This document shows positions 7,210 to 37,662 of a stretch of 64,000 nucleotides of DNA, one piece after another (within the stretch, counting starts at the first letter, position 1; each line of letters begins with the position of its first letter). Made by a program: the position numbers and the translations under genes. A model generated the notes under the pieces. It was not told the DNA's origin, made no database searches, and saw only the letters and a list, made by a program, of their open reading frames with translations. Source of the stretch: a virus; IMG/VR virus record IMGVR_UViG_3300009512_000010, positions 32,001-96,000 of that record; one strand, given 5' to 3'.

Positions 7210-7837
7210 AGTCTTCTCCATAATTATGTTTGGCTAGACAGCCTGTCTCATTCTGAATAGTAGTAAAACTATCGTCACAGTCTACAGGCCATGGATAGTA
7301 CTCTTCTAGCCATGGGAATAGTCTGTTGTTAAGATATATATCTGTGGGTTGTGCATTGAATACCGCTTCGGCAATGATAGCTTCAGCACCCCTTGGAGTG
7401 ACTGCATATGCGTGTGCTCCGGGTAAGTATTGTTTTGAAACCAATTTACCAAGACCTAGATTGGGCATAATGTATTTACCATAGGATGGTTTACCGATGT
7501 TTACCAACCCATTGAATGGCATCTTGGGGATAGCCGCCTTGACAACCGCATCGTGCTCGAAGATAATGATTGATTCATTTAGTTCCACACACTTCTTCCA
7601 CAATAGGAAGTGTGACATGAATGCCGACACAACTCTATCATATCTTGAATACTTCTCAAGGAAGTTCTTAACAGGGATGCCGTGCTTTTCTGCCAAAGAA
7701 AACACACTCTGTTCTGGTGTGATAGCGTCAAACACCTCTATACTATCATCATTATGCCGTTTAAACGACTTTATGCAACGATCAGACATCTCCACACTCT
7801 GTGGATTATCTTTTATTGTGATAACAAATGCTCTCAT
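7196..7837 (-). CDS. glycosyltransferase family 25
   Basis: AFVI...FDAI...SHFLLWKKC...IIFEHDA...GAHAY. Confidence 0.85.
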   Translation of the reverse strand: MRAFVITIKDNPQSVEMSDRCIKSFKRHNDDSIEVFDAITPEQSVFSLAEKHGIPVKNFLEKYSRYDRVVSAFMSHFLLWKKCVELNESIIIFEHDAVVKAAIPKMPFNGLVNIGKPSYGKYIMPNLGLGKLVSKQYLPGAHAYAVTPRGAEAIIAEAVFNAQPTDIYLNNRLFPWLEEYYPWPVDCDDSFTTIQNETGCLAKHNYGEDYGII

Positions 7838-8529
7838 AGTGTAGTCGTACTCCTAGTACGTTGTATCGTGGTATAATACTTCTTAGTCACACCGATATTC
7901 TTAATAATCTGTCTGCACATTATAGCATCATTAGGCCATAGGCCATACTGATAACATGCTCTCAACAGATCATCTGCCCCATCTGGTGTTAGTATATATG
8001 CACTGTTTCCAGCGATACCTTGAGGCACACCCCAACCATCTATATGAGGAACTGGTTGCACCACTTCTTTTCTATTCTGTATTACATCATGAAACTGTTG
8101 CGATTTGCGTGTTGCTCCTAGTGGAGAATTAACACCTATGATATTATACCCTTTGTTTAGGTAATTGTCAACATTAAGATTGGTGGTAAATATCGCATCG
8201 TGTTCGAATATCAACATAGGTGCTTTGTTTCTAGAACATCTGTCCCACAACCTAAAGTGGCTCATAGAGCATGCTACACGTGCATGTCTATTGGCTGTCT
8301 GATATGCCACCTTCCTCAGTCCAGAAGCCATATCGTGGATCTCTCCATCCCAAGGCCAATTCCACTGAAGCTTGTATGCCTTAACCCACTCTTCAACATC
8401 GTCTGGCGTAGTGGCCTCGAAGGTCTTTATCTTAAATTTGTTATCAAACTTAGCAGAGGATGCAATGCAATTTGCGGCGGCAGTTTCGCTTACTTCGTTA
8501 CCCTTAATGGTTATAACGTGTGCTTCCAT
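7834..8529 (-). CDS. glycosyltransferase family 25
   Basis: ACSMSHFRLW...LIFEHDA...GNSAY; paralog of the neighbouring gene. Confidence 0.85.
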   Translation of the reverse strand: MEAHVITIKGNEVSETAAANCIASSAKFDNKFKIKTFEATTPDDVEEWVKAYKLQWNWPWDGEIHDMASGLRKVAYQTANRHARVACSMSHFRLWDRCSRNKAPMLIFEHDAIFTTNLNVDNYLNKGYNIIGVNSPLGATRKSQQFHDVIQNRKEVVQPVPHIDGWGVPQGIAGNSAYILTPDGADDLLRACYQYGLWPNDAIMCRQIIKNIGVTKKYYTTIQRTRSTTTL

Positions 8530-27671: not shown

Positions 27672-28646
27672 CTATGAAGCCAGTGCGTATTGCACTGCCT
27701 TCTCTGCCGCTTTCATCTTGCGGTTTTGGTTTGCGCCGAACCACTGGCTGTGGAGACGATTTTCTGCATTACGACCTTGAACGTGGTCTGTAACATAAGT
27801 TACTGAGTTGAATGCTTGCCACCAAGATCCTTCGGCGTAGTTGGCTCCCGGTTGGCTCTCTAACACATCATAGCAGTTCTTTGCTTGACGTGACAGATCA
27901 TCAACTGTCTTCACTGAGGCAACCTTACGCTTAGTGTCAGTGTGTGGGAACACATCGTTGTAGAAGTTGATGAGTTCTTCGGCACCGTAGCGGCGTGATC
28001 CAATGAACTGAGCCATCTCTTTATACTTCTCAAACTTCTCGTGTGCGATACCCAAGTGCTCTTTAGCCTGTTGTGGATCAAAAGCTTTACGGTGTGACAC
28101 CTTCTCAACACGCTTATCGTTAGCGTTAAGAGACATAGTCAATGTGTTGTTGCATACCACACGAACAGGTGTGAAGCGCACATCGATTGACTTACCGTAC
28201 ATGTGTGGATTGGAGAACAGCAAGAATGATTCTACTGTATCATCACCAAAGACATCGAAGCTTTCCTTGACCTTAGCCAAAGCCCATACCTGTTGACCAC
28301 CTTTAAGCGATCCCGCAGTATGCATCTCCATATCTCCTGCGGCAATGTATTCCGCAAAGAATTCAAACGCAGTCTCGTTCTGCACAGGGTTCCAATTCTC
28401 TCCAACATTGGTCAGAACTGAGTTATCAGATGTACGGATCAGGGACTGTTGTCCTGTCTTGATCTGTTGACCGTTAACGTTCACGAATGAATCGTGCTTC
28501 TCGACGTTCCAATCAAGACCCGCTTTTTGCATCATCTGAACAGGAGTGAGTTCGTTAGATACCTGAGTACCCAAGCCATGCCAAGGCGTATCGCCCGCAT
28601 AAGCCATCTGAGCAACACCGTCGATAATTTCTACTTCATGTGACAT
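27672..28646 (-). CDS. DUF932 (LGT_TIGR03299-like) family protein
   Basis: MAY.G.TPWHGLG...AGLDW.V...TAGSL.GG..VW.LA...TPVRVVCNNTL. Confidence 0.88.
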   Translation of the reverse strand: MSHEVEIIDGVAQMAYAGDTPWHGLGTQVSNELTPVQMMQKAGLDWNVEKHDSFVNVNGQQIKTGQQSLIRTSDNSVLTNVGENWNPVQNETAFEFFAEYIAAGDMEMHTAGSLKGGQQVWALAKVKESFDVFGDDTVESFLLFSNPHMYGKSIDVRFTPVRVVCNNTLTMSLNANDKRVEKVSHRKAFDPQQAKEHLGIAHEKFEKYKEMAQFIGSRRYGAEELINFYNDVFPHTDTKRKVASVKTVDDLSRQAKNCYDVLESQPGANYAEGSWWQAFNSVTYVTDHVQGRNAENRLHSQWFGANQNRKMKAAEKAVQYALAS

Positions 28647-28684
28647 TGTATTTCCCTTCACTTGTTTTCATAACTAATATAAAC

Positions 28685-29634: not shown

Positions 29635-29693
29635 GATTCTCTCCTATTTGCTTTCATAACTAATATGACACAAAGGAGTTTAGCTGTCAAGTC

Positions 29694-31727
29694 TTATTTT
29701 GTGGTTGCTCTAAAGATCCCATCCCAATCCTTTGGGAGATCTTGTGTCTTCATATACTCACAACGTTCAATCCAGATGTCATAATAGTCATCCATCTTGC
29801 CTTCGAACTTACCCTTCATATCTTTACAGATGTAGATAGCTTCGTCAAAGTGCTGTGTTGCATAGAAGTTGTGCATAGTGTTGTGATTGAGCATATCCAC
29901 ACCATGTTTGTTAAGGTCAATGTCTAATACTGTATAAATCGTTAACCCTACAGTCTTACCCTTAACGGCAAGATTGTCAAGTTGTAAATAAAAGAAATCA
30001 TTTTGCGTTAGCTCGTAGGTATGGGGTCCCACAATTAATAGAACCCCATACCCTTTGCATGCGCTCTCTAGTCGAGCGGCTGTACTGACACTGTCTCCGA
30101 GGATATCATAGGAGTGTCTGGATGTAGAACCCATCTCTCCAATATAACCAAGGCCAGTATTAATGCCAGCACCCATACCGACTTGCGGTTTACCTTGTTC
30201 CATAAGTTTTTCATTAAATTTCTCCACTGCTTTTAGCATGTTTAGTCCAACCTGTACCGCAGTCTTTGGATGACTGGGATCTGGGATTGGAGCGTTGTGT
30301 ATGTGCATAGTTGCGTCACCGATATATTTGATGATCATTCCGTTGGCATCTAGCACAGGTTGTGTTATTGCATCCATGTAACTGTTCATCACTGTTGTCA
30401 AACCTTTAACATCATCTCCGAACGATTCACCCAATGGGGTGAAACCTCTAAGATCAGAAAATACAATGCTTACTTTTTTCTTCCGACCTTCTTTAATTAG
30501 TTGTGGGTTCTTCTGTAGTAACTCCACAACTTCTGGTGAAGCATATCCACCGAATTGTTTCTTAATTGCTTGTTTCTCTAGGAACTCTCTAACAAACTTA
30601 ATACCATATACTTGCAATGCTATGATCACAAAGACTATGGTAGGTGCTGTCACATCTATTAGCATCTTCTCTGTATTATACATGTACATTGAATATGGTA
30701 TGACAGAACCGATAAGAACACCTGTCGCAATCAGTCCTACTATCATCCATTTGCTTAGTGCAATTAGAGCCAAGCCACCAATCACAATAGCAAGTAGTTC
30801 CGCCATTGGTGCCCAATCGGGACGTTGGATGTTAGTTCCATTAAACATTGTGCCTAGAACTGCCGCTTGGACTTCCCCTGCATATACAGATCCCATAGCA
30901 GTTGGGGTAGGATTGGCTATACCTGCGGCTGTCACGTCAACGATAACAACTGCACCATCAAAGTTTGGTAGATCCGTTATGGACACTCTCTTACTCTTTT
31001 GGCTCCAATCGATCCAGACACGACCTTCACTGTCAGTTGGGATAATACCGAACTGAGGGATCCTCATCTTCTCTATACCGTTGGGCTGTAATTTGATTTG
31101 AAAGCTAATGTCGCCTGCAAGAACACGTAATGTCTCAAGTGCTAGGCTAGGGTATAGTGTACCATCAACCATTGCTACGGTTGGCATACGTCTAACCACA
31201 CCATCTATCTCTGGTTCTGTGCTAATGATCCCTGCACCAACAGAGTTTTGTTCTATGATTGGGACGTTAGCAATTATGCCATCGTATGGAAGAATTGCAT
31301 GCAAATGCTCTGGATTGATAATAGCCGCACCAGGATTGATAGGTTCGTTCTTAGTTTTGTCTGATGGGCGTGAAGCTAGGACTACAGGATAATCGTATAG
31401 AATATCACCCATATATGCATCACCACCTAAACGATCCTCTTCTGGCATCATGATTGTCCAGACCACAAGACCCGCACCCGAATCATATAAACCTTTTATT
31501 ATATCACCATAAACGTTTCTTGGAAAGGGGTATTGACCATATTTGTTTAAAGCTTCTTCATCTATCTCTGCAACATAGATGTTATTATCTACAGGCTCTT
31601 GGTTAATGATCAGTTGATCAAAATAGTTCAGTCTAATGCTTTGTACAAAGTTAGACGGATATACAAACGTATATACTAAAACTGCTAGGGTTAATATTGC
31701 CCACCAAGGACTCAATAGTTTCTTCAT
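29694..31727 (-). CDS. CHASE2-domain class III adenylate cyclase
   Basis: CHASE2 (IDEEAL..YGQYPFPR, DGVVRR, PSLALE), three TM helices, cyclase motifs FSDLRGFT, KYIGDA, GAGINTG, GEMGS, GDSVSTAARLE. Confidence 0.93.
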   Translation of the reverse strand: MKKLLSPWWAILTLAVLVYTFVYPSNFVQSIRLNYFDQLIINQEPVDNNIYVAEIDEEALNKYGQYPFPRNVYGDIIKGLYDSGAGLVVWTIMMPEEDRLGGDAYMGDILYDYPVVLASRPSDKTKNEPINPGAAIINPEHLHAILPYDGIIANVPIIEQNSVGAGIISTEPEIDGVVRRMPTVAMVDGTLYPSLALETLRVLAGDISFQIKLQPNGIEKMRIPQFGIIPTDSEGRVWIDWSQKSKRVSITDLPNFDGAVVIVDVTAAGIANPTPTAMGSVYAGEVQAAVLGTMFNGTNIQRPDWAPMAELLAIVIGGLALIALSKWMIVGLIATGVLIGSVIPYSMYMYNTEKMLIDVTAPTIVFVIIALQVYGIKFVREFLEKQAIKKQFGGYASPEVVELLQKNPQLIKEGRKKKVSIVFSDLRGFTPLGESFGDDVKGLTTVMNSYMDAITQPVLDANGMIIKYIGDATMHIHNAPIPDPSHPKTAVQVGLNMLKAVEKFNEKLMEQGKPQVGMGAGINTGLGYIGEMGSTSRHSYDILGDSVSTAARLESACKGYGVLLIVGPHTYELTQNDFFYLQLDNLAVKGKTVGLTIYTVLDIDLNKHGVDMLNHNTMHNFYATQHFDEAIYICKDMKGKFEGKMDDYYDIWIERCEYMKTQDLPKDWDGIFRATTK

Positions 31728-32500
31728 TAGTTACCGTTCTGGTCTATGTTAAGTGCGCAACCAGTATCAAGAAAACAAGTTCCCACAACAGAATATGTCA
31801 TACTGTTAGATCCGTACTGTGTAGAGTTAATATCTGCCATTGCATTACTTCCTGTTTCAATATCTATACTCACAGAATGGTTGCCAGATCCTGTCTGAGA
31901 TATATCGAAATCATGGGGTGAGCCTAACATATCGAGAAATGCGTATTTGGATGATCCTGTCTGTGTCAACAGCACGTCATTATCATCACCACTAACCATG
32001 ATATCTGCTTCATGGGTATTACCATCTTGGTCTACAGTAATAGTATTGTCATCACCGTTTGCTTCTATTTTCGCACTATTGTAATCACCGTCTTGATCAA
32101 TAACAATAGTTTGATCATTATCACCACCATTACCTAGTTCGCCATTTGCAAGGTTATAATTGCCATTTTGTTCAATATCAATAACACAATTATTACCATG
32201 GCAATCTAAACTTGCTGAGTTGTTATCACCTGTTTGCGACAGATTGTTTATTCCATTACCAGAACTCATCCATACCCACGCTTGATTATTGTCACCTGTT
32301 TGCGCATATGTAGTGCTTGTGTTGTTACCACTCACTTGAGCCTTACCGCCCGAACCAGTTATCTTATTGTTAGCACCATCTTGAGTGATGGTCATGTCTG
32401 TATTATCACCAACTTGCCTCACATAAACCTCATTAGACCAACTAGCGTTGCTGATAAATGTCAATAGAGTTGCCAGTGTTATCCCCCAACCTGTAGTCAT
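31727..32500 (-). CDS. curlin-repeat protein (CsgA/CsgB-like)
   Basis: Signal peptide plus many QxGxxN repeats (ITQDGANN, AQTGDNN, SQTGDNN, EQNGNYN, DQDGDYN). Confidence 0.8.
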   Translation of the reverse strand: MTTGWGITLATLLTFISNASWSNEVYVRQVGDNTDMTITQDGANNKITGSGGKAQVSGNNTSTTYAQTGDNNQAWVWMSSGNGINNLSQTGDNNSASLDCHGNNCVIDIEQNGNYNLANGELGNGGDNDQTIVIDQDGDYNSAKIEANGDDNTITVDQDGNTHEADIMVSGDDNDVLLTQTGSSKYAFLDMLGSPHDFDISQTGSGNHSVSIDIETGSNAMADINSTQYGSNSMTYSVVGTCFLDTGCALNIDQNGN

Positions 32501-33575
32501 ATAACTCCCAATCGTTCTGTTGCAGATCTATGGTATAACCATATGCCTGATTTAATCTTAGTTGTACGAAGTTTTCTCCGCTATCATTTCTTCTAGAGAA
32601 CACCCAATTAGGTGTTTGGTTTAGTAAGGAGATACCTGTCAATGGATCTAATCCGTATATATTCGCTTCCTGTCTTAGTAGCATTGCATTCTGATCGGCA
32701 AGCTCATCACTAAACAACCTCTTTAATGCCTCATTCAATTGATCTAACATATCATACAGTAAGTCTTTAAGGTAGTCTACGTCCAAGTCGAGTTCAGTAA
32801 GCCAAATTCCCTCTATTGAATCAACTAAGGCGTCATAGTCCAATCCCTCATACTGTAAAAAGTCTAACCCAAGAAAGTCTGCGGCCTGTCGTTTCTCAAT
32901 TAGAATTCTACTTTGCTCTTCAAAGTATGGGTTCTTCTTACGTAGGATCAACAGTTGGTTGATCATGCTTTCATCAATGTCCAACAAAAGTGGTGGTGTT
33001 GGTTTATTGTTACTAGTTGATGCTACCGTAACTTGAAATGCTTTATTAAGTACGACAAATCCAGCATCTGTCTCGACTGTTATCTCTCCTGTGTAGCACA
33101 TACCTGCGGCATCACAACTTGGAAGTAATGTGACCATACTACTACCTGTTTCATCTACAACCATAATGAAGTCTGTGCCACGAACACCAATCGTTGCAGA
33201 TGGAGTTCGTATTCTTACCCTCTGTCTACTATTTTTAGCAATCTGACCACTTGCGTATCGGATTGTTCCTAAACTTGCTTTGAGACCAAGTGATCCCTTT
33301 CCAGTAGATGGGTCATAAACAAAGTCATCAATGATGAGACGTGAGTGTTCTGTTATGTCAACTCTTGTCTCATCAATGAAGTTGATAGTCATGGCAGAGT
33401 TAGCCGTAACTGCCGTATCATCCATTTGTATTCCAGTACCCTTCTCCGCACTTATTTCGGAGTTATCACGCTCAATCGCCGCACCACCTTCTTTACCTTT
33501 AAGTTGGGCAATCTCGCCAATGTTTGCATATGCCGAAGTAGACATACACACTAATAATAAAAAGTACTTTAACAT
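32442..33575 (-). CDS. secreted FecR-domain protein
   Basis: Signal peptide; F.DET.V.I.E.S.L.ID, IRTPSATIGVRGTDF. Confidence 0.85.
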   Translation of the reverse strand: MLKYFLLLVCMSTSAYANIGEIAQLKGKEGGAAIERDNSEISAEKGTGIQMDDTAVTANSAMTINFIDETRVDITEHSRLIIDDFVYDPSTGKGSLGLKASLGTIRYASGQIAKNSRQRVRIRTPSATIGVRGTDFIMVVDETGSSMVTLLPSCDAAGMCYTGEITVETDAGFVVLNKAFQVTVASTSNNKPTPPLLLDIDESMINQLLILRKKNPYFEEQSRILIEKRQAADFLGLDFLQYEGLDYDALVDSIEGIWLTELDLDVDYLKDLLYDMLDQLNEALKRLFSDELADQNAMLLRQEANIYGLDPLTGISLLNQTPNWVFSRRNDSGENFVQLRLNQAYGYTIDLQQNDWELYDYRLGDNTGNSIDIYQQR

Positions 33576-34294
33576 CAGTCAGATTGTGTGATGTTTATAG
33601 CTTGTGTATCGCCATTTGTGTGAAGATCAATTACGTTGTCGTATATACCACTTTGGTTTATAACAACAGCATGCCCACGACCCTTTAGGTCAAGACTGAT
33701 TGTGTGTCCGTTAAGATCTCCATCACCAGAAACGTCAATGTCTAATGTGCTGTTACTCGTTTCAAGACTTGCGTTCTTATCAATTGCTACTGTTATAGAC
33801 GCACTTGTACCATCAACATCTGTTGTGATAACGTTTCCGCTATCGTCAACTGTGAAGTTGATTGTAGAGTTACTCGCATCTGCGGTTTCACCAATATTGA
33901 TTGTATAGTCTTGGTTGTCGCCATCGGCATCAATGTTGAGTGTCACAGTATCACAGTTACCCCCAGCGGCACTAGAACACATAAGATCGATCTCGTTATT
34001 ACTACCCAATATGTCCCAAGTACCTACATAGGTACTACCAAGAATTTGTGCCGTAATGCTGTTCGAGTTACCTGTCTGTGTTATGCTGAATGTCATAGAG
34101 TCGGAAGCACCACTAACAGATCCTAAAACTACATCTTGTAGACTAGTACCTATGGTGTTGTTCTGACCGTCTTGGACAATGTCCAAATCTAAAGTGTCGC
34201 CAACCTGTGTTATGTATATGTCGTTTGCATTAATCGGTGTCAGTGGTATACAAAGTGCGCATACCAATAGTATAAACTTTGATGAATACTTCAT
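33575..34294 (-). CDS. curlin-like secreted beta-solenoid protein
   Basis: Signal peptide; IYITQVGD, IVQDGQNN, ITQTGNSN, INQSG repeats; D/N/T/S/I-rich. Confidence 0.7.
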   Translation of the reverse strand: MKYSSKFILLVCALCIPLTPINANDIYITQVGDTLDLDIVQDGQNNTIGTSLQDVVLGSVSGASDSMTFSITQTGNSNSITAQILGSTYVGTWDILGSNNEIDLMCSSAAGGNCDTVTLNIDADGDNQDYTINIGETADASNSTINFTVDDSGNVITTDVDGTSASITVAIDKNASLETSNSTLDIDVSGDGDLNGHTISLDLKGRGHAVVINQSGIYDNVIDLHTNGDTQAINITQSD

Positions 34295-34306
34295 TGTTCT
34301 TTCCTA

Positions 34307-35107
34307 TCATCCGCCAGTCTTTGGATCTACCAAAAACTTCCAGAATTGTCTGTTTTTCCCTTCGTTAATAAGTTCAATAACGCCAGCTTCTATCGCTGAT
34401 CTGACTGCATAATTAACTGGTTCATTCAAACTATAACCAGTTTCCGCTTCAACTAACTTAGTTCCCATATCAAAGAACTTGAACATATCTGCACCTGTTT
34501 GGTGACTTGCTATGTTCTTTTCAGTAGCAACACTCAGTAATACCTTACCTGTGTTAACACTAACTAATCTCATGACTATTGTGACGGTATCAACTCTATA
34601 TTGTTGTTGAACACCAAGACCAAGATACTTTGCACCTGATCCACCTGTAGCCACACTTGAGTCATAACCAACAATGCCACCCTCAAGAATGAGACCAGCA
34701 AATACCATTGGCTTTAGAGGCGTAGGTCCGTCTGCGAGGTTCTTCTCATAGACTTCTCTTGTGTTTCTAACAAGCTGTCTCTCTCTGATTAAATTGTCAA
34801 GACCAACTCGTTCAACAACCTCAAACCATGTTCCGTGACCAACATCTTGTAATGCTTTGATCACCCATACTTCCGCACCTTGAGTAACGGCACTACTTAA
34901 ACTTGCACCCCCACCGCTAGGCTTTCTCTGTCCTGTCATATCCTTAAACTGATAAACAGCAATGGTCATAATCTTACCATCCATCTGAGGATAGTCGGAA
35001 ATATCATTAGGAGAAACCTGTACCACAGGCTCTTGTCCTATAGGATACTGCGAAGGATCCACACAACCTGCAAGTAATGCTATTATCGTTATCAAAGCAA
35101 AACGCAT
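34307..35107 (-). CDS. csgG: curli secretion channel CsgG (lipoprotein)
   Basis: LAGC lipobox; AVYQFKDMTGQRKP, SSAVTQG, WFEVVERVGLDNL..ERQ, EGGIVGYDS, E.G...NEP. Confidence 0.93.
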   Translation of the reverse strand: MRFALITIIALLAGCVDPSQYPIGQEPVVQVSPNDISDYPQMDGKIMTIAVYQFKDMTGQRKPSGGGASLSSAVTQGAEVWVIKALQDVGHGTWFEVVERVGLDNLIRERQLVRNTREVYEKNLADGPTPLKPMVFAGLILEGGIVGYDSSVATGGSGAKYLGLGVQQQYRVDTVTIVMRLVSVNTGKVLLSVATEKNIASHQTGADMFKFFDMGTKLVEAETGYSLNEPVNYAVRSAIEAGVIELINEGKNRQFWKFLVDPKTGG

Positions 35108-35571
35108 CAGAAGTTAAACTCCCCTGATCCTGGAATAGTAATGGTTGTAGTACCATCGTCATTTGTTATGACTAAGGTGATAGATCCTGTAGTAGAATCT
35201 TTAGACCACTCAATCGTACTTCCCTCAATCTCTGTAGATCCGCTACTAGCGCAATCATCTCCTGTACACTCCGCAAACATGGAGTCAACCATCTGTTTAC
35301 TCAGTGTCGCATATATTCTACTCTCAAGGTTCTTAATAAATTTGTTTAATGTAGTATTCTCTAGCTCACGCTCAATGCGATTAGCTTCCGCTCTCATTTC
35401 GTCTTTTCGGTCTTTATTCCTATTGAACAGTAATTGCTCAGTAGATAGTGCATGGGACGAATATCCTTGCCCACTAAAGGAAGGGTTCTTAAAAGTAAAA
35501 GTTAACTCCGCATTACTTTGTGTTGGGAGTAACACCAAAGCTATTAGGCTTAGGATCATCTTCTTTTTCAT
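35107..35571 (-). CDS. csgF: curli assembly factor CsgF
   Basis: Signal peptide then ELTFTFKNPSFSG; C-terminal GTTTITIP; directly upstream of csgG. Confidence 0.85.
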   Translation of the reverse strand: MKKKMILSLIALVLLPTQSNAELTFTFKNPSFSGQGYSSHALSTEQLLFNRNKDRKDEMRAEANRIERELENTTLNKFIKNLESRIYATLSKQMVDSMFAECTGDDCASSGSTEIEGSTIEWSKDSTTGSITLVITNDDGTTTITIPGSGEFNF

Positions 35572-35863
35572 CGGCTTGACCTGTTGAGTTGTGCGTTTCG
35601 CTCGTTGATTGGAACTTAGCAACTTCATTATCCATGCCACGATGTTCCAACACCATCGAAAGCTTACTGTTTAATCTTATCATATCATTATCAAGCATAC
35701 GAACTCTATCGACCAACCGTATCAGAGTCATCATAGTTTCGCCAATAACAGGGTCAATAGTTTCCGTAACCCACTTCCATATAAAGTAGATAAAGTAACC
35801 CATGCCAACAGAGGCAACGACAGGAAAGCCGTATTCACTTATAGCTTGGGTTACACTATCCAT
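35513..35863 (-). CDS. small membrane protein (GFP-motif TM + coiled coil, YvrJ-like)
   Basis: ISEYGFPVVASVGMGYFIYFIW; RVRMLDNDMIRL; paralog of 36102-36380. Confidence 0.7.
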   Translation of the reverse strand: MDSVTQAISEYGFPVVASVGMGYFIYFIWKWVTETIDPVIGETMMTLIRLVDRVRMLDNDMIRLNSKLSMVLEHRGMDNEVAKFQSTSETHNSTGQADEKEDDPKPNSFGVTPNTK

Positions 35864-35864
35864 C

Positions 35865-36101
35865 CTAGTCCTTATTCTCATAAATTATAGAAGCATATGA
35901 TTGATCATCAATAGCTTCATTATGAATATTACCGTGTATACTGCCAACATTCTCAAAGTATCCGTTAGGACCTACTCTGAACATATCACCAATTTCGAGT
36001 TTCACATCATCAATAACGAAGAACTTATCATCTGTGTTCTTTCCATTGAGAATCCGAAACCCATTACTAAACTTAGATAGTACCAAGTCTTTCCAAATCA
36101 T
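35865..36101 (-). CDS. hypothetical protein in curli operon
   Basis: 78 aa ORF abutting both neighbours. Confidence 0.65.
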   Translation of the reverse strand: MIWKDLVLSKFSNGFRILNGKNTDDKFFVIDDVKLEIGDMFRVGPNGYFENVGSIHGNIHNEAIDDQSYASIIYENKD

Positions 36102-36380
36102 TTAATCTCTCCTTGCGTCTTCCTTACCTTCGTTAGCCGCAATACGGTCAATATTAGGTTTGACATTTAGAGCATAACTAAGTAAGGCATCAATTTTCAC
36201 TAAATCGTTGTTCATTGTCTGCACCCTATTGTCAAGGGAACCGATTATACTTCTAAGAGTTGTTACAGATTCTGTAACACTCGCTAGGATAAACCTCAAT
36301 GTGATAAACACGAACACCCCTGCGGCCATTGCCCCAGCTATCGGAAATCCCACTTTATCTATTATTGCAAATATATCCAT
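36102..36380 (-). CDS. small membrane protein (GFP-motif TM + coiled coil, YvrJ-like)
   Basis: IDKVGFPIAGAMAAGVFVFITL; RVQTMNNDLVKI. Confidence 0.7.
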   Translation of the reverse strand: MDIFAIIDKVGFPIAGAMAAGVFVFITLRFILASVTESVTTLRSIIGSLDNRVQTMNNDLVKIDALLSYALNVKPNIDRIAANEGKEDARRD

Positions 36381-36385
36381 ACACC

Positions 36386-36393
36386 TATTTATA
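36386..36393 (-). promoter_or_regulatory. T4-type late promoter heading the curli/cyclase operon
   Basis: Exact TATAAATA between the terminator and the first gene of the operon. Confidence 0.75.
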
Positions 36394-36394
36394 C

Positions 36395-36426
36395 AAAAAG
36401 AAAGGGGAACCCGAAGATTCCCCTTT
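36395..36426 (-). terminator. intrinsic terminator after porin gene
   Basis: AAAGGGGAA-(T)CTTCGG(G)-TTCCCCTTT stem with cUUCGg loop, then TTTCTTTTT. Confidence 0.85.
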
Positions 36427-37277: not shown

Positions 37278-37592
37278 AGTACGACTTTTCTGTTGCTAGG
37301 TAAGTCGCCAACCCCCTTAAATTAGGCCGCTAGGCGCAATTCAGAAGGAGCAAAGTTATTGTTTGCATTTAGTAGTTTTGACCAATTACGCAGTCACCCG
37401 ATAAACTCCACGTTCACTTTCACACCTGTCGATCCTAGTTCGCCCCCATCAAAAGCACATCATCTTCAACCCTCGTGAGGTCTGTGTCTCTGCAAAAACA
37501 CCTTATTGCAGTAAGGCGTAATGTGCTTGTGGTGGAGGCGTTGGGTACTGCCCCCAAGTCCAGAATGTGTCCACGTTGCTTCAACGTCTACA
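37278..37592 (-). ncRNA. ssrA: circularly permuted two-piece tmRNA (alphaproteobacterial type)
   Basis: Acceptor piece ends CGCCTCCACCA (37530) with GGCAGTA T-loop. Coding piece starts GGGGGCG (37447), giving a G3:U70 pair. Tag ANNNFAPSELRLAA* at 37322-37366. Confidence 0.93.
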
Positions 37593-37598
37593 AGTTAT

Positions 37599-37627
37599 AT
37601 AGTATCACAGACCACCTAAAGTGTCAA
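37599..37627 (-). promoter_or_regulatory. sigma70 promoter of tmRNA
   Basis: TTGACA-17-TACTAT with TG extension. Confidence 0.8.
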
Positions 37628-37662
37628 CAGTCTGCGACATTGATTTAATGTTGTGATATATA

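Follow-up and report, generated by a model that had tools for sequence, protein, structure and literature searches.

Why would a bacteriophage carry, one behind the other, genes for curli-type export, a FecR-domain protein and a receptor adenylate cyclase, and what might their products do together during infection? The question is raised by nine open reading frames (ORFs), all on the minus strand, between positions 36393 and 29694 of a 64,000-nucleotide stretch of viral DNA (hereafter the window), which corresponds to positions 32001-96000 of the 159,934-base IMG/VR record IMGVR_UViG_3300009512_000010. A first-pass annotation had read this cassette as a late operon coupling type VIII (curli) secretion to signalling across the envelope through cyclic AMP (cAMP). 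Our analyses leave hardly any doubt that the cassette is the known viral type VIII secretion system (T8SS, curli) module. The best explanation overall, to which we give an even chance, is an envelope system in which CsgG, CsgF and the curlins provide export, and a FecR protein together with a CHASE2 adenylate cyclase signals through cAMP.

The module was described by Wittmers et al. 2022 (PMC9599517) from podophages and myophages as one or two 'HK' genes, CsgF, CsgG, CsgA/B, FecR, a second CsgA/B and an adenylate cyclase; they also mapped its occurrence worldwide, found it expressed in metatranscriptomes, traced it to an alphaproteobacterial origin and put the cassette at about 0.1% of assembled viral proteins. 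This contradicts the first-pass statement that the combined module was undescribed in a phage. The accompanying statement that curli genes are known from SAR11 myophages is correct. Zaragoza-Solas et al. 2020 (PMC7029224) and, later, Buchholz et al. 2022 (PMC9004378) treat the curli genes alone, leaving the cyclase and FecR unmentioned. CHASE2 is mentioned in none of these three papers, and none of them contains function experiments. The window shares with the module of Wittmers et al. its gene set, its conserved order, the small upstream genes and a marine myo-/podophage genome. The same families stand in the same order (two small membrane proteins, CsgF, CsgG, curlin, FecR, curlin, cyclase) in HTVC008M (KC465899) and Melnitz (MZ577097), which resemble the window in their T4-like myophage background and in a permuted tmRNA nearby, at 33-77% identity per protein; HTVC023P-type podophages are further carriers (PMC7029224, PMC9004378, PMC9599517). 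The deposited records of Melnitz and HTVC008M annotate CsgF, CsgG, curlin repeat proteins and the cyclase, and FecR is annotated in that of Melnitz. The window differs from both in an extra 78-amino-acid (aa) gene between the membrane-protein genes and in a porin-like gene directly upstream.

The source of the window is itself a T4-like myophage, with PHROGs matches to a gp43-type DNA polymerase, gp41 helicase, UvsX, gp46/47 and NrdA, and with all its genes in the window on the minus strand. Megablast of the cassette region against 50,697 phage records returned zero matches, which marks it as a phage distinct from HTVC008M and Melnitz. Its GC content, about 41%, is above that expected for a SAR11 phage.

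Judged from its sequence, the cassette reads as a single late-type, translationally coupled unit. The genes, their order, their coordinates and the boundaries of the unit all stand as the first-pass annotation had placed them, including the one-base stop/start overlaps (TGATG at 35107, TGATG at 33575 and TAATG at 31727), the terminator and T4-type late-promoter motif TATAAATA upstream and the promoter downstream; its gene identities and its single late-type unit are likewise supported. The upstream hairpin closes the porin-like gene and marks the unit boundary, and the sigma70-like promoter behind the cyclase gene is the start of the next unit (Table 1). Exact TATAAATA occurs 9 times in the window, every copy on the coding strand, as against a mean of 4.4 in shuffled windows (0 of 100 shuffles reached 9). 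In relatives, an exact or near TATAAATA usually precedes the orthologue of the first gene, which encodes the small membrane protein TM1 (exact in 18 of 46 distinct upstream regions); in Melnitz the motif overlaps the ATG of TM1, and in other relatives it lies 15-30 nt upstream, with a normal ribosome-binding site present. Two starts within the unit called for a choice: CsgF most likely begins at the ATG at 35571 (MKKKMILS...) rather than at the GTG at 35640, and the second membrane protein, TM2, most likely begins at 35863.

The signalling half of the preferred explanation depends on the cyclase, whose predicted layout comprises a transmembrane segment, a periplasmic CHASE2 domain (about residues 16-320), transmembrane helices and a class III cyclase domain (residues 414-593), the best solved relative being Pseudomonas aeruginosa CyaB (E 2e-22). 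The catalytic positions include the metal-binding residues D425 and D471, the substrate residues K467 and D541, which are of the adenylate type, the transition-state residue R552, and K589. Across 74 relatives, the Asp, Lys and Arg catalytic positions are essentially invariant. Residues 541 and 548 covary perfectly over 70 relatives, with Asp and Ser in 40 and with Thr or Ser and Asn in 30; the window cyclase belongs to the former kind (Asp541/Ser548) and that of HTVC008M to the latter (Ser/Asn). We take this covariation as a sign that a working active site is under selection. Conservation is as high in the periplasmic CHASE2 domain as in the catalytic one.

The association of cyclase, FecR and curli genes was examined in viral sequences from two independent seeds, the cyclase and the CsgG alignment. 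Wherever a cyclase-seeded viral locus had enough upstream DNA, CsgF, CsgG and FecR lay upstream of the cyclase, mostly accompanied by one or two curlin-like genes; from the CsgG seed, FecR and the cyclase were found in 43 of the 43 viral loci that extended at least 7 kb downstream. The csg, FecR and cyclase genes are thus tightly linked in relatives, a point on which the first-pass annotation had made its reading depend. In every case FecR precedes the cyclase on the same strand or is next to it. TM1 and TM2 occur in two arrangements and adjoin the cassette in both: they either precede it directly on the same strand or lie on the opposite strand downstream of it. The slot between FecR and the cyclase varies, being empty or occupied by a second curlin of 250-640 aa, an autotransporter-domain protein or an added gene of 112-118 aa. 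The autotransporter case is an 853-aa protein with an autotransporter beta-domain (PF03797, 1e-20), which replaces the curlin in that slot in one relative (L053:4178-6739). Several relatives have, between the second curlin and the cyclase, the conserved protein of 112-118 aa (M..L.YG.AL..HL.F.G.YN..HPH.R...; L018:8410-8748, L055:8648-8989, L030:3018-3362 and 7564-7908, L084:7795-8151), which has no Pfam match and is absent from the window.

Bacterial counterparts were sought with the FecR alignment as query in one genome per species, and two kinds of locus were found. The first, on a 396-kb contig of Henriciella, follows the phage order with csgF, csgG, a curlin-repeat protein of 504 aa, FecR and a CHASE2 cyclase, and has TonB-dependent receptors, an ALO-type oxidase, an FAA hydrolase and 2OG oxygenases as its neighbours; contigs of 587-705 kb from Hyphomonadaceae metagenome-assembled genomes (MAGs) carry the same proteins. 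The five families of this locus (L090, L091) share 35-48% identity per protein with those of the phage, from which the locus differs in having no TM1 or TM2, no second curlin and a single 504-aa one. It contradicts the statement in PMC9599517 that FecR and the cyclase are never found within bacterial T8SS operons. Among 201 sampled genomes of the family to which Henriciella belongs, the query genome was the only carrier (1 of 201). In a quick tree, the Henriciella cyclases fall outside a supported viral clade (SH-aLRT 95), the outgroup being very distant and the root placed at the midpoint. Two sets of apparent bacterial carriers were set aside. Contigs of 212-332 kb, which hold the next-best homologues of the Henriciella FecR protein and a shorter form of the cassette, carry T4-type genes and were recognised as jumbo T4-like phages. 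The contigs L083-L089 and L092, from MAGs labelled Legionellales, Polynucleobacter, Pelagibacter, Flavobacteriaceae, Bacteroidetes and Sphingobacteriales, carry TM1/TM2 (L089 has further phage-type genes besides) and are most likely mis-binned phage contigs.

The second kind of locus, found in Rhodocyclaceae, Sterolibacterium and other proteobacteria, has FecR followed directly by a CHASE2 cyclase, without csg genes, in nine loci (L095-L103 apart from L100). In ten loci, L100 and L107 included, FecR has as its divergent neighbour a CRP-family regulator (cNMP_binding plus HTH_Crp_2), and 9 of these 10 show the CHASE2 cyclase beside FecR, L100 being the exception; a TPR protein follows the cyclase in both annotated loci of this group. 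These regulators, such as those at L099:8869-9816 (-) and L096:9213-9908 (-) and in eight further loci, complete a compact cAMP signalling cassette. In Sinorhizobium, CHASE2 cyclases operate with Clr, whose targets include FecR-domain and TPR proteins, and deletion of CHASE2 from a rhizobial cyclase leads to constitutive cAMP production (PMC5498481); a Burkholderia operon combines a LysM-FecR protein with a CHASE2 kinase (PMC5192318). That FecR-domain genes adjoin CHASE2 sensors in bacteria, as the first-pass annotation had supposed, is therefore borne out by the loci L095-L103 and by both papers. In all these pairs (L095-L103 and L107, Sinorhizobium CyaD1/CyaD2/CyaK with Clr, and Burkholderia), the FecR gene lies immediately upstream of the gene for the CHASE2 membrane sensor, as in the phage. 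A FecR protein and a CHASE2 cyclase thus form a sensor pair that can be recognised in bacteria and that normally produces cAMP for a dedicated CRP-type regulator to read. The cyclases of these pairs share with the phage enzyme the class III cyclase output, at an identity of only about 21%. Furthermore, the bacterial cassettes have their own cNMP-binding CRP-type regulator and a TPR protein and no csg genes, whereas the phage form has csg genes and no receptor.

The FecR-domain protein of the window fits the input side of such a pair. Its model (mean pLDDT 74.7) falls into three parts, namely a confident beta domain (residues 20-185), a poorly predicted, acidic, helical stretch (200-305) and a small beta domain (308-375). 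The model of the N-terminal domain matches the PupR periplasmic signalling domain (Z 15.2, rmsd 2.3 over 128 aligned residues), and the first part of it also matches the cell-surface anchoring domain of MpIBP, the ice-binding adhesin of Marinomonas (Z 9.3, rmsd 2.2, 26% identity, with 73 of 76 residues aligned). A search of the PDB sequences with the FecR family profile gave nothing relevant. A role as anti-sigma factor or iron regulator was rejected, given that only the periplasmic domain matches PupR and that the N-terminal cytoplasmic anti-sigma domain is absent, its place being taken by a cleavable-type signal peptide with the beta domain beginning at about residue 20. The C-terminus ends in an IxIxQ motif common to the curlins, and in a profile-profile comparison the last 44 residues align to the last curlin repeat (probability 50%, E 1.6e-4). 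The C-terminal domain folded alone (mean pLDDT 77.9) gave no Foldseek match in the PDB at E 0.001 or better, and no CsgA-like match. The curlin-like reading of this domain comes from the profile match and the shared end motif only, and we treat the FecR-curlin link as a lead. A covariation between the C-terminal motifs of FecR and curlin in Henriciella was dropped once the sequences had been read. A predicted complex of CHASE2 (26-312) with the FecR N-terminal domain (18-205), made with alignments, scored 0.00 (mark 0.32) and was taken neither way.

The export half resembles the curli system of Enterobacteria (csgBAC-csgDEFG) in its CsgG, CsgF and curlin-repeat subunits. The match to Escherichia coli CsgG covers the whole length (residues 2-257, E 1e-49), and CsgF gave no match with phmmer against the PDB sequences. 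Curlin 2 matches the CsgA and CsgB models at 4.6e-19 and 5.3e-17, under the equivalog cut-offs; curlin-like protein 1 is 31% identical to it over 243 aa (E 1e-20) and has the family motifs, NEIYIxQxGD at the N-terminus and IxITQ at the C-terminus. Signal peptides, of Sec or lipoprotein type as read by eye, stand at the starts of CsgF, CsgG, both curlins and FecR, and the curlins have conserved Cys pairs, which fit an extracytoplasmic location. On these two grounds we rejected the possibility, raised by the first-pass annotation against itself, that the curlins are virion fibres. The phage system differs from that of Enterobacteria in its longer curlins (239-257 aa) with Cys pairs, in a changed CsgG constriction, in the addition of FecR, the cyclase and two small membrane proteins, and in that no CsgE, CsgC or CsgD was seen among the nine ORFs of the cassette.

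TM1 and TM2 are paralogues, as both match phrog_18771, and each has one N-terminal helix and a helical tail. From their position we infer that they are the 'HK' genes of PMC9599517. If so, the label of histidine kinase finds no support in their sequences, which gave no HisKA or HATPase_c Pfam match at E up to 10 and no NCBIfam match. In the atlas, their neighbours are exclusively viral, with a weak lead towards YvrJ-like proteins, and of the 50,697 phage records only those of Melnitz and HTVC008M, both carriers of the cassette, contain them. TM1/TM2 are a phage-specific addition, being constant with the cassette and absent from its bacterial form. In Melnitz the 78-aa gene is found downstream of the cyclase; other relatives have it between TM2 and TM1.

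Together, these elements suggest the following sequence of events, a sensor-relay mechanism that we consider tenable, at somewhat less than an even chance. Late in infection, the CsgG lipoprotein and CsgF would be exported through Sec and form an outer-membrane channel, the cargo of which would be the two paralogous curlin-repeat proteins, giving rise to a surface structure. Periplasmic FecR and the CHASE2 cyclase would constitute the input half of the FecR-CHASE2-cAMP pathway that free-living proteobacteria encode beside their own CRP-type regulator, and the pair would report the state of the envelope or of secretion as cAMP to a target in the host or to an unrecognised phage factor. TM1 and TM2 would be part of the system.

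Several observations weigh against this explanation. Foremost among them, the cNMP-binding family was not found in the virus record of the window (CheckV 91% complete), nor in 23 related virus records, the complete Melnitz and HTVC008M included, nor in 115 of 121 Pelagibacter-family genomes (it was present in 6). In a phage without a recognisable cAMP receptor, the signal must act on a host factor or on an unrecognised phage factor. A route through a host CRP is possible for this phage, whose GC content exceeds the SAR11-phage expectation, but it cannot be general for the family. The output through host CRP-type regulons proposed in the first-pass annotation is weakened by this lack of cNMP-binding domains in the phages and in most Pelagibacter-family genomes. 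The transition-state Asn position of the cyclase is Ser548 in this clade. The E. coli CsgG constriction residues Y51/N55/F56 are replaced by S/S/L (KPYP-ASNF against KPSGGGASL in the alignment with 3x2r), and the properties of the phage channel may consequently differ from those of the E. coli one. The late transcript may be leaderless, or may skip TM1 or begin inside it, because TATAAATA lies only 5 nt from the first ATG. Melnitz-infected cells showed no clumping (Buchholz et al., PMC9004378). Finally, all steps of the mechanism beyond domain content are ones that we infer.

A more specific version, in which the FecR protein is a tether across the outer membrane feeding a cAMP switch, appears to us decidedly improbable. 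By analogy with the retention module of LapA/MpIBP-type adhesins, the FecR N-terminal domain may be held in the periplasm under or beside CsgG, while the acidic linker of about 100 residues may thread the pore and the C-terminal beta domain may seed or cap the curlin structure outside. A pull on the surface structure or its loss, caused by a superinfecting virion or by cell contact, may then shift FecR against CHASE2 and switch cAMP, for which the receptor may be something other than a canonical cNMP-binding protein.

Among the rival explanations, the one that survives best, although we consider it unlikely, is that of Wittmers et al. 2022 and Zaragoza-Solas et al. 2020, in which the module is a fibre or aggregation device for sibling capture or a superinfection shield. 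FecR, the cyclase and the 'HK' proteins would then regulate curli, so that cAMP would inform the secretion system and would not itself be a readout of the envelope. The curlin repeats and the complete CsgG/CsgF pair accord with such a device, as do the input of E. coli cAMP-CRP into csgD (cited in PMC9599517) and the abundance and expression of the module in the ocean (PMC9599517). The proposed direction of control is harder to accommodate: the genes are translationally coupled behind one phage late-type promoter, neither CsgD nor CRP is encoded, which leaves cAMP without a visible means of regulating them, and CHASE2 and FecR are periplasmic input domains. The putative regulators do not answer to their names either, the 'HK' proteins being of 92-116 aa with no kinase-domain match even at E 10, and FecR having a signal peptide where the cytoplasmic anti-sigma part would be. 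The infection of cells by Melnitz without clumping (PMC9004378) also counts against aggregation.

The explanation of Buchholz et al. 2022, that CsgG/CsgF is a repurposed gated channel timing lysis or admitting solutes, with the curlin-like proteins, FecR and the cyclase as its gate or trigger, seems to us very unlikely. It starts from the absence of CsgA/B, which is incorrect, as a pair of paralogous curlins with signal peptides is conserved across the family, and an outer-membrane pore by itself leaves the inner membrane polarised. The S/S/L constriction, a CsgE gate that is not encoded and the late-type promoter of the unit would all suit a channel of this kind; so would the size and layout of TM1/TM2, which are like those of small phage lysis regulators, a resemblance only, as they show no sequence link to holins or antiholins. 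Least probable of all is that the cyclase is a standalone host-takeover enzyme, flooding the cell with cAMP or using up ATP, and that its csg linkage reflects block inheritance from an alphaproteobacterial donor, for although Henriciella has the same block, branching outside the viral clade, and unrelated cyclase domains occur in other phages, linkage and order are kept down to 33-50% identity, jumbo phages included, while flanking genes changed, CHASE2 is conserved as much as the catalytic domain, and FecR keeps its place upstream of or beside the cyclase. An envelope system signalling through cAMP remains the explanation that we prefer.

Table 1. Features of the cassette and its surroundings, with positions in the window
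Feature	Position	Strand	Evidence and remarks
DUF932 protein	27672-28661	-	PF06067 1.9e-39; phrog_1221
Sigma70-like promoter	29662..29690	-	TTGACA-17-CATATT with TG extension; begins 3 bases past the cyclase stop
Membrane receptor adenylate cyclase (predicted)	29694..31727	-	Pfam CHASE2 4e-31 and Guanylate_cyc 1.4e-18
Curlin 2, 257 aa	31727..32500	-	Curlin_rpt, four stretches, 5.5e-25
FecR-domain protein, 377 aa, periplasmic	32442..33575	-	Pfam FecR 4.6e-10; signal peptide
Curlin-like protein 1, 239 aa	33575..34294	-	Signal peptide; no Pfam match; paralogue of curlin 2
CsgG homologue, outer-membrane lipoprotein channel	34307..35107	-	Pfam PF03783 1.6e-49; lipobox LAGC
CsgF homologue	35107..35571	-	Pfam PF10614 1.3e-14; signal peptide; mature N-terminus ELTFTFKNPSFSG; stop overlaps csgG start
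TM2, 116-aa membrane protein	35513..35863	-	phrog_18771 2.9e-28; paralogue of TM1
78-aa soluble protein	35865..36101	-	No family match; optional cassette member
TM1, 92-aa single-pass membrane protein	36102..36380	-	phrog_18771 3.7e-30; predicted helical tail
TATAAATA, T4-type late-promoter motif	36386..36393	-	5 nt ahead of the first ATG of the unit
Intrinsic-terminator-like hairpin	36401..36426	-	11 pairs, loop TTCG, then CTTTTT
Secreted protein, 255 aa	36484-37251	-	C-terminus ...LNLSFSF; no Pfam, PHROG or NCBIfam match
Permuted alphaproteobacterial-type tmRNA	37278-37631	-	Rfam alpha_tmRNA 114.9 bits; ARAGORN tag ANNNFAPSELRLAA

The neighbourhood of the cassette has features of its own. 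The secreted protein encoded directly upstream is porin-like: its atlas neighbours are viral, and the nearest named atlas cluster is Gram-negative porin (0.95). In distant relatives and in jumbo phages, a homologue of it (30-37% identity) or an OMP_b-brl gene lies within a few kb of the cassette. The tmRNA is located about 900 bases upstream of the cassette, in an arrangement similar to that in Melnitz, and the DUF932 gene two genes downstream.

The result from the window is confirmatory, in that it adds a further carrier to a module published in 2022. Five points go beyond the published papers: the recognition of CHASE2 in the cyclase, the bacterial counterparts linked to CRP, the locus on the Henriciella chromosome, the 'HK' genes without a kinase domain and the absence of cNMP-binding proteins from the phages searched. 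Of the accessory gene blocks that ocean phages carry, this cassette is one of the more abundant, and it gives streamlined hosts an envelope function that they otherwise lack. If the FecR-CHASE2 pair does report the state of the envelope as cAMP, the receptor of that cAMP becomes a concrete question, and the module would represent a phage-encoded sensory pathway active during infection.

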